DNA of 8,034 nucleotides. It comes from a virus (Duplodnaviria; Heunggongvirae; Uroviricota; Caudoviricetes). Where the stretch lies: the IMG/VR virus record IMGVR_UViG_2695420602_000004; one strand, written 5' to 3'. Under the pieces are notes generated by a model that was given only the letters and a program-made list of their open reading frames with translations, was not told the DNA's origin and made no database searches. Below are positions 1,618 through 5,775 of the stretch, piece after piece (the first letter of the stretch is position 1; every line of letters begins with the position of its first letter). A program made the translations under genes and the position numbers.

Positions 1618-1694
1618 ATTTAGATATCTTAATAACCCTTGACTTGAGATTCCTTGAGTGATTAGCATTGAGAAAACTCAATATTGGGGGTGCG
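1618..1694. promoter_or_regulatory. Divergent immunity-region promoter/operator between dicA-like and dicC-like genes
   Basis: TTGACT (1639..1644) with TAGCAT-like -10 (~1663..1668) for the rightward gene; TTGAG repeated at 1644, 1654 and 1668, with inverted CTCAA at 1677..1681 (TTGAGAAAACTCAA, 1668..1681) overlapping the -10/start region. Confidence 0.45.
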
Positions 1695-2427: not shown

Positions 2428-3373
2428 ACGCCCACTGGTTATAAACACACAGCTTGCGATGAAGATTGGCTTAAACGAAGCCATTGTGTTGCAGCAGTTG
2501 CATTACTGGTTGAGAGATACCAATTCCGGCATGGAATGTGATGGTGTTCGCTGGATTTACAACACAACGGAACAATGGCTGGAACAGTTCCCGTTCTGGT
2601 CAGAGTCAACGTTAAAGCGCGCGTTTGCAAGTCTGAAAACGCTGGGGCTTTTACGTTGCGAAAAGCTCAATAAATCAAAGCGCGACATGACCAATTTCTA
2701 CACGATCAACTACGGGAGCGAGCTTTTAGATGGTGGCAAATTGAGCGAATCCATCAGTTCAAAATGCGCCGCTCCATCAGGTCAAAATGACACGATGGAA
2801 GAGGTCAAAATGAAACGCTCCATTGGTTCAAAACGACCCAATGTCATCGGGTCAAAATGGCCTGATGATCTTACAGAGAATACAACAGAGATTACTACAG
2901 AGAATAAAAACACTTTTCGTCCGGAAGCTTCGCAACCGGACCCGCAGACGGCTGAACAGGATTTTTTAACCCGGAACCCCGACGCGGTTGTGTTTAGTGC
3001 GAAAAAACGCCAGTGGGGTAGCAGGGAGGATTTGGCGTGTGCGCAGTGGATTTGGGGGCGGATCGTGAACCTTTACGAACAGGCTGCCAGCGACGATGGA
3101 GAGATCATGCGACCAAAAGAGCCTAACTGGACAGCCTGGGCCAATGACGTGCGCACAATGCGGATGCTGGATGGCAGAAGCCACAGACAAATTTGCGAAA
3201 TGTTTGGTCGGGTACAGCGAGATCAATTCTGGGTAAAAAACATCATGAGCCCGTCAAAACTCCGCAAAAAATGGGACGAACTGGTCATCCGCCTGGGACG
3301 TTCACCTGTACAGCGTTGTGTGAATCATATTTCTGAACCGGATACAGAAATTCCGCCTGGTTTCAGGGGATAA
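2408..3373 (+). CDS. Phage replication initiator (O-like; N-terminal HTH, low-complexity linker encoding ori, C-terminal DnaT-like region); start at ATG 2408 preferred over TTG 2354
   Basis: N-terminus MSLLFAERPLVINTQLAMKIGLNEAIVLQQLHYWL typical of lambdoid 'replication protein' HTH domains; iterons lie inside the central linker, as lambda ori lies inside O; ATG 2408 overlaps the upstream stop by 20 nt. Confidence 0.72.
   Translation: MSLLFAERPLVINTQLAMKIGLNEAIVLQQLHYWLRDTNSGMECDGVRWIYNTTEQWLEQFPFWSESTLKRAFASLKTLGLLRCEKLNKSKRDMTNFYTINYGSELLDGGKLSESISSKCAAPSGQNDTMEEVKMKRSIGSKRPNVIGSKWPDDLTENTTEITTENKNTFRPEASQPDPQTAEQDFLTRNPDAVVFSAKKRQWGSREDLACAQWIWGRIVNLYEQAASDDGEIMRPKEPNWTAWANDVRTMRMLDGRSHRQICEMFGRVQRDQFWVKNIMSPSKLRKKWDELVIRLGRSPVQRCVNHISEPDTEIPPGFRG
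2751..2910 (+). repeat. Candidate origin of replication: five direct G(G/T)TCAAAA(T/C)G iterons at 23-24 bp spacing, then an AT-rich segment with TACAGAGAATA x2
   Basis: Iteron cores at 2757..2766, 2780..2789, 2803..2812, 2826..2835, 2850..2859 (the first two extended as CCATCAG-GTCAAAATG); TACAGAGAATA at 2872..2882 and 2896..2906; all embedded in the initiator's low-complexity linker. Confidence 0.55.
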
Positions 3374-3413: not shown

Positions 3414-3815
3414 GTGGCAAAAGTTTTTACACAAGAAGAGCGGGAAAAAATTAAAGGGCAGGTGGTGGAACTCGTACGCCAGAGTGGGCGCGAGACATTA
3501 CGACAACTGGAAGCTAAAACTGGGGCAACAAGATATCTGATGAGCGTTCTGGCCAGAGAGCTGGTTGCCAGTGGCGATGTATACAGCTCTGGTTACGGGT
3601 TATTCCCGTCTGAACAGGCGCGTAAGGACTGGCAAAACGCCCGCAAAAAACTCTCGAGGGCAAAGGTGAAGAAAACAGCTGTGATTGATCCGGACCTTAT
3701 CTGGTCGTTACCTGATGGAGAAATACGTCGCTACGACAGTCGCCTAAACATAATCTGTCGCGAGTGCCGGATGAGTGAAGTTATGCAGCGCATACTGGCA
3801 TTTTATCAGGGATAA
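3414..3815 (+). CDS. ren: Ren-like protein (133 aa), GTG start
   Basis: AGGAGG (3404..3409) 4 nt before GTG 3414; C-terminus ...ICRECRMSEVMQRILAFYQG and an internal ...KTGATRYLMSVLARELVASG resemble remembered lambda Ren (...FKECRQSAAMKRVLAVYG; ...LTGATVTSINQAA...); sits right after the replication gene, as ren does in lambda. Confidence 0.55.
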   Translation: MAKVFTQEEREKIKGQVVELVRQSGRETLRQLEAKTGATRYLMSVLARELVASGDVYSSGYGLFPSEQARKDWQNARKKLSRAKVKKTAVIDPDLIWSLPDGEIRRYDSRLNIICRECRMSEVMQRILAFYQG

Positions 3816-4004: not shown

Positions 4005-4937
4005 ATGGAAATCAACAAAGAAAAATTGTCAGGTTTACTTAACTACTTCGAGTCTCGCAAGAAATACGCTGCAACTCGAATATCTAGTTTATCCAGTCAG
4101 AATGAGATCTGTTTCGCTTTGTCAGGATTGACGTTTCGAAACGGGCCTTATGTTTTCCAAGACGTAGGTGAATTAAGGGAGGTACTTCATCCACCAGGAG
4201 AGATAGAGTTAGCCAAAGCGCTTAAGAGCAAGTCGCTACTCAGCGCTGTTGCTCGTCATATGCCCGCAGTTACGCATGAGCTTGCGTTGCAAAGCAGTGA
4301 GTCGAAATTTTCTCAATCAGACCTGACTATCGGATGGTGGATCATATCCGCGATCCGATGCCGCACACTCACCGATATACTTGTTCCTGCAGTAGCAAGT
4401 GCATCTTGGGATGTATTCCCTGCTCTTCAAGCCAACTCGTGTGAAGTCCAACTTCTTGAGGACGTGCCGGCAGTTCGGAGAATAAGCCCAAGTGTAGAGA
4501 TATCAGTAGAGTCTCTCGACTGGGTTCAAGAGAATCTCAAGCGTTGGATAGATCTGCTAGAGCAACCAGCATTCCGGCTCGCTATTGATTCTTTAACTAC
4601 TCACAACCAACACGCGAATTTGAGAATGGCTGCTGCTGCTTTATGGGCAGGATTTGAAGCGCTCTTTGGAATCAATTCAGAGCTTCGTTTTCGTCTTGCT
4701 CTTATGGCCGCAGCATATCTTGAGGAGCGAGGGCCTGATCGTTTAGCCACCTATCGTAGGGTTAAGAAGCTGTATGACTACCGTTCGAAGGCAGTGCATG
4801 GGGGAGCTACGTCAGATAACTTTTTAGTTGAGCATATAATTGAGGTACGAGTGCTTTTATCCCGATTAGTGTGTCGCATGACAGAGATCGGAAAAATGCC
4901 CACAACCGACGATTACGAGGAACGGCTTCTAACTTAA
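4005..4937 (+). CDS. 310-aa cargo protein with C-terminal R-x4-H motif (R260-S-K-A-V-H265); candidate HEPN-family RNase / abortive-infection-type defence protein
   Basis: Single long ORF with only a weak SD; 189-bp structured intergenic region upstream and 11-bp-stem hairpin downstream; motif YRSKAVHGG (nt 4782..4799) in what reads as an alpha-helical C-terminal region; the flanking genes are conserved lambdoid genes. Domain call is inference from the motif only. Confidence 0.7.
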   Translation: MEINKEKLSGLLNYFESRKKYAATRISSLSSQNEICFALSGLTFRNGPYVFQDVGELREVLHPPGEIELAKALKSKSLLSAVARHMPAVTHELALQSSESKFSQSDLTIGWWIISAIRCRTLTDILVPAVASASWDVFPALQANSCEVQLLEDVPAVRRISPSVEISVESLDWVQENLKRWIDLLEQPAFRLAIDSLTTHNQHANLRMAAAALWAGFEALFGINSELRFRLALMAAAYLEERGPDRLATYRRVKKLYDYRSKAVHGGATSDNFLVEHIIEVRVLLSRLVCRMTEIGKMPTTDDYEERLLT

Positions 4938-5444: not shown

Positions 5445-5619
5445 GGCTGCGGGTGCTTGAGGCTATCTGCCTCGGGCATGAACACCAACGGCAGATAGAG
5501 AAAAGCCCCAGTTAACATTACGCGTCCTGCAAGACGCTTAACATTAATCTGAGGCCAATTTCATGCTAGACACATGTAGGTTAGCCTCTTACGTGCCGAA
5601 AGGCAAGGAGAAGCAGGCT

Positions 5620-5775
5620 ATGAAGCAGCAAAAGGCGATGTTAATCGCCCTGATCGTCATCTGTTTAACCGTCATAGTGACGGCACTGGTAACGAGGAAA
5701 GACCTCTGCGAGGTACGAATCCGAACCGGCCAGACGGAGGTCGCTGTCTTCACAGCTTACGAACCTGAGGAGTAA
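5620..5775 (+). CDS. hokD: Hok-family type I toxin (51 aa, MKQQKAMLIALIVICLTVIVTALVTRKDLCEVRIRTGQTEVAVFTAYEPEE), HokD/RelF-like
   Basis: Sequence recognised as Hok family (TM helix plus conserved LCE.R....EVA.F.AYE); an in-frame upstream ATG at 5563 gives a 70-codon extended ORF; SD-like AAGGAG at 5604..5609. Confidence 0.85.
   Translation: MKQQKAMLIALIVICLTVIVTALVTRKDLCEVRIRTGQTEVAVFTAYEPEE

Follow-up and report, generated by a model that had tools for sequence, protein, structure and literature searches.

The stretch analysed here, referred to below as the window, is an 8,034-nt segment of a virus of the class Caudoviricetes (IMG/VR record IMGVR_UViG_2695420602_000004). It carries a gene for a 321-aa protein that matches the PHROGs family phrog_391, 'replication initiation O-like' (E=7.7e-93; residues 17-321 against positions 11-298 of a 298-position profile). 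Inside this open reading frame (ORF), in the part predicted to encode an inter-domain linker, lie the repeats of 2729-2912: an array of iterons followed immediately by an AT-rich block of tandem 12-bp units (Table 1). The original prediction took this arrangement for a replication origin embedded in the initiator gene, an interpretation supported, as far as sequence comparison goes, by constraint acting at the DNA level, by lambda-like anatomy and position, by covariation of the iterons with the N-terminal domain of the initiator and by closely similar modules in isolated phages.

Table 1. Coordinates of the putative origin, the initiator gene and associated features in the window
Feature	Position	Strand	Basis or remark
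Replication initiator gene, 'O-like', 321 aa	2408..3373	+	phrog_391 match
N-terminal domain, aa 1-101, putative iteron-binding winged helix	2408..2710	+	Model, homologues, covariation
Linker-coding segment, aa 102-174, holding the whole origin	2711..2929	+	Predicted local distance difference test (pLDDT) <50
Upstream degenerate iteron, copy 0, core GGCAAATTGA at ~2734	2729..2751	+	In register with iteron 1, at a distance of one period (23 bp)
Iteron 1, core GTTCAAAATG at 2757-2766	2752..2774	+	Left half-site only
Iteron 2, core GGTCAAAATG at 2780-2789	2775..2797	+	Dyad-symmetric, centre 2786
Iteron 3, core GGTCAAAATG at 2803-2812	2798..2820	+	Weak symmetry, half-site
Iteron 4, core GTTCAAAACG at 2826-2835	2821..2843	+	Dyad-symmetric, centre 2832
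Iteron 5, core GGTCAAAATG at 2850-2859	2845..2867	+	Dyad-symmetric, centre 2856
Candidate DNA-unwinding element, three 12-bp ACAGAGAnTAnn units (2873-2884, 2885-2896, 2897-2908)	2868..2912	+	Stability, conservation
C-terminal domain, homologous to the lambda O C-domain	2930..3298	+	BLASTP
C-terminal tail VQRCVNHISEPDTEIPPGFRG, residues 301-321, DnaT-like	3308..3370	+	Alignment to DnaT C-terminus
pR-like promoter, TTGACT-18-TAGCAT	1639..1668	+	Consensus scan of the repressor/cro interval; pattern match only

The iteron core GKTCAAAAYG has five exact matches on the + strand, spanning 2757-2859, and no further match in the rest of the window. Their start-to-start spacings are 23, 23, 23 and 24 bp. 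The number of matches expected by chance is 0.12, and five were reached in none of 200 dinucleotide-preserving shuffles, which bears out the claim of five G(G/T)TCAAAA(T/C)G copies 23-24 bp apart. Both a repeat search and Tandem Repeats Finder (TRF) define the full repeat as a 23-bp unit present in five copies over 2752-2867. The consensus of 59 units, pooled from the window and ten relatives, is CATCrGGTCA-AAA-TGACCyGATG, a near-perfect palindrome in which 9 of the 10 arm positions are complementary. At the place of the degenerate copy 0, mEp460_4F5 and further relatives, among them those from Klebsiella and Enterobacter, have a well-matching copy, GGTCAAAGTG. The spacing had also been described as a pair of helical turns. 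This holds only approximately: 23-24 bp amounts to 2.2-2.3 turns, so that successive sites are rotated by ~70-100 degrees, and the lambda iterons are spaced by 20, 24 and 23 bp.

The segment 3' of the iterons, 2868-2912, has a GC content of 29% and a top strand that is 67% purine. The 40-mer 2870-2910 is the least stable of the gene and the third least stable of the window (z=2.6); the two segments of still lower stability are located at or between gene boundaries. The AT-richness proposed for this region is therefore confirmed, while the 'duplicated' TACAGAGAATA proposed with it proves to be part of three tandem 12-bp units at 2873-2908. The sequence CAGAGANTA occurs three times against 0.15 expected.

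Several observations indicate that these repeats are maintained for their nucleotide sequence. The iteron cores start at codon positions 2, 1, 3, 2 and 2, hence in all three reading frames, and are translated as SSKC, GQND, VKMK, GSKR and GSKW; with a period of 23 bp and cores in three frames, the array encodes no peptide repeat. Variation was examined site by site in 51 distinct alleles from viral-contig loci at 93-99% protein identity, the only level of divergence returned by the first search for relatives, which was used for polymorphism and not for covariation. In the block 2749-2912, 11 of 55 third positions (20%) and 18 of 109 first and second positions are variable (p=0.67). The flanking domains pooled (2408-2730 and 2991-3373) show a normal coding pattern, with 125 of 235 third positions variable (53%) and first and second positions variable at 7% in the N-domain and 14% in the C-domain. 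Third-position variability thus differs sharply between block and flanks (Fisher p=9e-6). A low-diversity control region within the N-domain, 2543-2677, retains the normal coding pattern (13 of 45 third against 3 of 90 first and second positions, p=4e-5). Judged from these patterns of substitution, the constraint on the repeat block acts on the DNA and not on the protein.

The 12-bp units bear the same signature. Only 2 of the 45 sites in 2868-2912 vary among the 51 alleles, and 2868-2909 is 100% identical in a Klebsiella phage despite a gene identity of ~80%. Protein similarity identified 17 relatives, and in every one of them the iterons are directly followed by two to five copies of a unit of the form (A)CAGAGAnTA(C)(n). 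Comparison of 52 units shows that positions 2-7, 9 and 10 are essentially invariant and that position 8 is free (A19, T17, G6, C10). This free position is a second codon position, at which substitution exchanges N, I, S and T for one another in the protein. Synonymous third positions, in turn, are frozen: the Glu codon is GAG in 48 of 48 cases, against 155 of 361 elsewhere in the same genes (p=1e-16), and ACC or ACG is never used for Thr.

The distribution of this element was surveyed by DNA-motif scans of viral contigs for two adjacent CAGAGAnTA units at a spacing of 11, 12 or 13 bp. The pooled scans yielded at least 234 distinct clusters with sufficient flanks, from contigs that are redundant and related and with no chance baseline; the 13-bp scan, intended as a control, matched the same origins. 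The counts that follow are among the matches listed. In 210 of 234 cases (90%), the cluster is located 250-1000 nt inside an ORF that encodes at least 200 aa. In the 165 nt upstream of these 210, self-similarity peaks at lag 23 (best lag 21-24 in 188), and in 122 of them the units do not all share one reading frame. In the 12-bp set, a BLAST-detectable homologue of the window N-domain is encoded directly upstream in 68 of 120 loci. The other 52 have different, visibly related N-domains ('...LSQ..YW...GWFYK...') and quite different repeats, again spaced by 23 bp. Examples of such different iterons beside one CAGAGAnTA block are AACCAGAATGCGG, CCTGCAAA, AGGGTATT and AGTTAAAT (L093 2800-3050; L117, L126, L131, L168, L181). 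For the purpose of this analysis a grouping was defined as two to five units, 10-14 bp apart, located directly 3' of repeats with a period of 21-24 bp and 250-1000 nt into an ORF of initiator size; the window belongs to it. On the evidence of these alignments, phage origins embedded in initiator genes form a large class in which the CAGAGAnTA block is invariant and the iterons are variable. The presumed opening region appears to be a sequence-specific repeat, beyond mere AT-richness, conserved across many iteron types and in hosts of two phyla.

What the iterons vary with can be judged from more divergent relatives, which were collected from a scan of one genome per species, from phage records and by tblastn against phages. 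A 67-79% identical N-domain is shared by ten relatives, which come from mEp460_4F5, a Klebsiella phage, Trabulsiella, Edwardsiella, Enterobacter, Citrobacter, Izhakiella and Raoultella. In each of the ten, between five and seven GGTCAAAATG-type repeats with 23-bp spacing occupy the same place, and in seven the iterons are kept next to an unrelated C-domain. Conversely, four relatives with a 61-70% identical C-domain and another N-domain (L093, L099, L100 and L102) have different repeats, AACCAGAATGCGG, CCGTCAGAA and ACCCCTCAA, at similar spacing. More distant homologues of the N-domain, at 46-63% identity, occur in phages and genomes of Staphylococcus, Bacillus, Pseudomonas and Erwinia, where the neighbouring genes are quite different. 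Iterons of the xxCAAAATG type are nevertheless kept in a Bacillus sp. (four TGTTCAAAATGA repeats), Bacillus phage TP21-L (TGTCAAAATGA), Staphylococcus phage 96 (GGACAAAATG) and Erwinia phage PEp14 (GGGCAAAATG/GGGCAATTTGCCC); the corresponding upstream repeat of Pseudomonas phage AF is weak. Across these sequences the iterons track the N-domain, and not the C-domain or the neighbouring genes, a double dissociation such as would result if the N-domain recognised the iterons and replicon specificity were set by them. The proposal that the iterons define initiator specificity is supported by this covariation.

The initiator appears to be composed of three parts. The AlphaFold2 model, built from a shallow alignment of 14 sequences, comprises an N-terminal helix/strand domain (aa 10-100), a segment with pLDDT <50 (aa 102-174, nt 2711-2929) and a helical C-domain; low as its confidence is, the model is consistent with the low-complexity linker location originally assigned to the repeats. 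The secondary structure of the N-domain is H-H-b-b-H-H-b-b, and every one of its top Foldseek matches, the staphylococcal plasmid Rep 5kbj among them, is a winged-helix DNA binder, although none is significant (no match in the Protein Data Bank (PDB) at E<=0.001); the model suggests a winged-helix fold. Relatives of the N-domain carry the PHROGs label 'DnaD-like'. Pfam returned no match for the initiator or for either of its halves, even at E<=10. PF04492 (Phage_rep_O), which lambda O matches at E=5.7e-36, was rejected as an identity for the N-domain on the same grounds. The C-domain aligns with that of lambda O (34% identity over 148 aa, E=7e-28 by BLASTP, with no similarity in the N-terminal part), and phrog_2357 and phrog_277 are matched by the C-terminal half of both proteins. 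By sequence, the initiator is a chimera of a different DNA-binding domain and a lambda-O-like C-domain. In PGAP/RefSeq annotation it is mostly labelled 'hypothetical protein', and some copies 'phage O protein family'.

Comparison with the lambda record shows how far the two origins agree. Four iterons are annotated in lambda O (ATCCCTCAAAACGAGGGAT and variants), against five plus one degenerate copy in the window; the first is located 349 nt into O and 345 nt into the window initiator gene, respectively. Both arrays share the dyad-symmetric centre TCAAAAYG and differ in the arms (ATCCC in lambda, CATCrGG in the window). The tract that follows is 43 bp long with 23% GC and 70% purine in lambda, and 45 bp long with 29% GC and 67% purine in the window. 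In both, the origin occupies the linker-coding middle of the initiator gene, between the N- and C-terminal domains, and the gene lies downstream of a pR/cro-type promoter. Lambda, however, lacks the tandem CAGAGAnTA motif of which the window tract is built, and the window N-domain has no detectable similarity to that of lambda O. Moreover, the lambda O-some is followed by delivery of DnaB by P, whereas the window has no P gene, and the C-terminal tail of the initiator, ...DWIYGVDL in lambda O, is DnaT-like in the window. The lambda 'ori-in-O' arrangement previously proposed is therefore retained for the layout and for the homology of the C-domain, and abandoned for the homology of the N-domain and for a P-like loader downstream.

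Neither the window nor the early-right operons of mEp460 and of the matching prophage contain an ORF that resembles P, DnaC or DnaB; lambda P belongs to phrog_109, a family that no window ORF matches. The tail of the window initiator (ending SEPDTEIPPGFRG; IPPGFRG) aligns end to end with the C-termini of the DnaT chains 2ru8, 6aep and 9zbt, which are reached through these 21 residues as the sole match in a PDB sequence search with the whole protein. Identity to the extreme C-terminus of E. coli DnaT is 14 of 21 residues (E ~0.01). This likeness explains the misleading label 'Primosomal protein I' in phage records; the initiator was rejected as a DnaT (primosomal protein I), the similarity being limited to the last 21 residues, with none in the rest. 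The terminal IPxGFRG is kept in relatives whose preceding residues differ.

The type of tail is related to the gene that follows. A gene for a P-like loader (phrog_109, E ~1e-70) comes after the initiator in three of three cases with the ending ...HWNSPEAWENTL, as P comes after lambda O (...DWIYGVDL); downstream of relatives with the ending (I/V)PxGFR(G/S), the genes are unrelated ones. The stop codon of the ...HWNSPEAWENTL initiators (L089 1473-2204, L095 3412-4140, L102 3379-4101) overlaps the start of the loader gene. The ...HWNSPEAWENTL tail may be a P-docking element, the tail of lambda O being of a similar aromatic/acidic type. The relation was examined in 182 distinct initiators with CAGAGAnTA origins, among the matches listed. 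No helicase or loader gene is present downstream of the 24 with a GFR(G/S/T) tail (up to four downstream ORFs, 70 distinct). For the other 158, one comes next in at least 78 of 140 distinct next ORFs scanned (DnaC-like 34, DnaB-like 33, P-like 6, other loader 5). The Fisher p for this contrast is 3e-8, a value in which the relatedness of the sequences overstates their independence. Another kind of tail, ...DDLPF, ends the initiators of L240, L260, L283, L296, L227 and L302, whose next ORFs are mostly of 260-300 aa; it resembles the C-terminal tail of SSB and suggests that imitation of the tails of host replication proteins may be a general, recurring strategy. The C-terminal domain of DnaT itself docks on PriA via a hydrophobic interface, and the step of DnaB/DnaC recruitment has been called unknown (2026, PMC13377028). 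From the pattern of tails and neighbours we infer that the tail couples the initiator to helicase delivery, the DnaT-like version probably recruiting host machinery in place of a phage loader.

Phages without a loader have been recognised before. Of 314 Enterobacterales lambdoid phages, 34 encode only an O homologue, a layout also given for LLS, the phage on which that study centres (Genome Res 2025, PMC12315714); the authors state that such O-only phages have not been studied and that their replication 'is not yet understood'. In the same source, the repressor and Cro of LLS are placed closest to those of mEp460_4F5. As far as the available passages describe them, O-only phages resemble the window and mEp460_4F5 in having a single O homologue and no helicase or loader, and those passages contain no description of an origin, of iterons, of a CAGAGAnTA repeat or of a DnaT-like tail. 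A full-text literature search, whose reach does not extend to older reviews in subscription journals, retrieved no paper with the iteron or 12-mer sequences in an origin context, such matches as there were being to unrelated primers, and a search on phage replication modules returned nothing on this initiator/origin family.

The surroundings of the initiator gene are those of a lambdoid early region: an IS1 fragment, DUF1391, a helix-turn-helix (HTH) repressor on the minus strand, Cro, a YdaT/CII-like gene, the initiator, DUF977 and a 310-aa protein, then hok/sok, rem, DUF968 and Q. Since the pR-like promoter lies upstream of cro, the ydaT-like gene and the initiator, transcription would pass through the origin as in lambda. 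The YdaT-like gene (1906-2427; 'toxin YdaT family', PHROG 'CII-like activator') overlaps the start of the initiator by 20 nt, which suggests translational coupling, and the two ORFs are fused in some database proteins (P0002-P0004, 448 aa). The DUF977 gene (3414-3815; 'LygF', PHROG 'Ren-like exclusion protein') directly follows the initiator, at the position of P in lambda. The 310-aa ORF (4005-4937) has no Pfam match, matches phrog_28161 (unknown function) and has an identical counterpart annotated in RefSeq as a HEPN domain-containing protein; it may be defence or toxin cargo between the replication genes and hok/sok. The hok/sok-type locus, 5451-5775, combines a sok RNA (RF01794, 115 bits) at 5451-5625 with an overlapping MokW/HokD-like ORF at 5563-5775; sok is the only Rfam match in the window, and no RNA family covers the origin. 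The window contains one DnaA-box match (0.66 expected); it is located at 3425, outside the origin, and DnaA-dependent opening was rejected as unsupported. At the left edge, the 3' part of an IS1 transposase ORF (1-378) runs off the window and abuts the early-left genes.

An identical module is present in a prophage of E. coli MY203L1 at the rspB (Qin) site. There, the counterpart of the IS1 stretch consists of ordinary prophage genes, which points to an IS1 insertion or truncation in the window copy. The MY203L1 prophage has int, xis, lysis, terminase, portal and capsid genes, a frameshifted DUF977 gene and an IS1 in its late region. Among isolated phages, the module is 98% identical in mEp460_ev081 (the initiator gene itself likewise 98%) and 97% identical in HannyBb.

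A working model can be drawn from these elements; its binding, wrapping and melting steps, the way the helicase is recruited and the partner assigned to the tail are all extrapolated from sequence comparison. Dimers of the N-terminal winged-helix domain would bind the five or six contiguous 23-bp dyad-symmetric iterons and build a wrapped complex resembling the lambda O-some, the ~2.2-turn spacing rotating each site by ~70 degrees. Strain from this complex, together with negative supercoiling and transcription from the pR-like promoter, would open the adjacent 45-bp segment of low stability. The three CAGAGAnTA units are constrained in sequence beyond their AT content and are thus probably recognised as a specific site, for instance in single-stranded form, either by the initiator or by the loading machinery. 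As there is no phage P, DnaC or DnaB, the host helicase would most likely be brought in by the lambda-O-like C-domain and the DnaT-like IPPGFRG tail.

Related layouts are found in other replicons. The origins of the Shiga toxin (Stx) phages 933W and P27 have six iterons, the two extra ones being weakly bound yet required (PMC7466680). Stx phages and the window share the location of the origin in the initiator gene, a number of iterons above four and weaker distal copies; in Stx phages the extra iterons lengthen the linker of the initiator. They differ in that Stx phages are true lambda-type O/P replicons with lambda-type iterons, whereas the window has another N-domain/iteron family and no P.

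Outside the lambdoid phages, the winged-helix/DnaD-like initiators of SPP1 (G38P-oriL) and of RepA_N plasmids (pSK41) bind repeats inside their own coding sequence, between the N- and C-domains. The likeness to the window is one of layout, and the match to the 5kbj fold is non-significant. These systems are not known to carry the CAGAGAnTA repeat. Repeated 13-mers or DnaA-trios beside the initiator sites are present in the melting regions of oriC and of RK2 oriV. By analogy, short tandem sequence-specific repeats next to initiator sites suggest that the window units could be read in single-stranded form, although they differ in sequence and period (10-13 bp, CAGAGAnTA) and lie inside an ORF.

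Taken together, these observations lead us to read 2729-2912, with a probability of about 85%, as the replication origin of a lambdoid (Qin-site, mEp460-like) prophage, bound by the N-domain of the initiator and located inside its own initiator gene. An origin laid out within the initiator gene is the textbook arrangement. The non-lambda N-domain and iterons, the apparently sequence-specific opening repeat and a seemingly loader-less replicon with a DnaT-like tail make it a variant rather than a mere further member. Several points weigh against this reading. Iterons 1 and 3 are mere half-sites; the AlphaFold2 model is of low confidence (mean pLDDT 55) and no fold match is significant; the match to the DnaT tail covers 21 residues only, at E ~0.01, and the preprimosome paper (PMC13377028) names neither tail contacts nor interface residues. 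The T-E-x-T frame is used by 78% of the CAGAGAnTA units among the matches listed, so that a role for the encoded peptide is possible. The prophage of the window is flanked by an IS1 fragment and may be defective. Finally, owing to shared ancestry and mosaicism among the alleles and viral contigs, the Fisher tests overstate independence; the codon-position contrast holds qualitatively whatever the kinship of the alleles.

Iterons of plasmids and phages serve both control and initiation, and the array could consist of initiator sites used mainly for control (autoregulation, copy-number 'handcuffing', incompatibility or exclusion) while replication starts elsewhere. Covariation with the N-domain demonstrates binding specificity and not initiation, and the extra iterons of Stx phages, weakly bound yet required, would also suit such a role (PMC7466680). 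We nonetheless consider this unlikely: the iterons are always directly followed by the conserved CAGAGAnTA block of low stability, the layout of an origin and not of an operator; their position equals that of the mapped lambda ori; and the other comparably AT-rich segments of the window have no iteron cores.

It is very improbable, in our estimation, that the sequence is a genuine origin by descent that is now inert, in a decaying Qin-type remnant unable to replicate autonomously. The Qin prophage of K-12 is defective, and signs of decay can be seen in the IS1 transposase fragment beside the early-left genes of the window and in the DUF977 frameshift and late-region IS1 of MY203L1. On the other hand, the initiator ORF is intact, the origin differs at only a few positions from those of the isolated phages, and the MY203L1 prophage keeps its integration, lysis and structural genes; moreover, this objection concerns the host element and not the identity of the feature. 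The notion that the repeats serve only a low-complexity linker peptide (SxK/GQN..., TENT-TEIT-TENK), for flexibility or interaction and with no DNA function, is hardly tenable, since the in-frame T-E-x-T coding of the 12-bp units (100 of 102 clusters with 12-bp spacing, among the matches listed) is set against a 23-bp period that cannot encode a peptide repeat, a sole free nucleotide that changes the amino acid, invariant synonymous third positions and clusters that mix reading frames.

The origin reading can be extended to a loader-less lambda-type origin. The CAGAGAnTA block would be a shared, sequence-specific opening or loading site, and IPPGFRG a borrowed DnaT tail that recruits the host primosome (PriA or DnaB-DnaC) and so replaces P. 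This joint proposal is tentative, and we hold it somewhat less probable than its negation. On this view the block would be common to a very large superfamily of initiator-embedded origins, in phages of Gram-positive as well as Gram-negative bacteria and irrespective of iteron type.

About one third of complete E. coli genomes (1746 of 5426) carry the module, and recognising it as a replicon improves prophage annotation and the prediction of incompatibility or exclusion. For the class of phages described as O-only (PMC12315714), concrete parts are now at hand for testing: a probable origin with its putative binding sites, a conserved element at which opening may occur, and a candidate motif for recruiting host proteins. 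Origins with different iterons and a common CAGAGAnTA block constitute a natural panel for the study of iteron specificity. The DnaT-like tail, whose occurrence is exclusive with that of phage loader or helicase genes, bears on the way DnaT couples the preprimosome to DnaB/DnaC (PMC13377028). If the loader-less proposal is true, the segment of DnaT responsible for coupling to helicase loading would be indicated by phage initiators.

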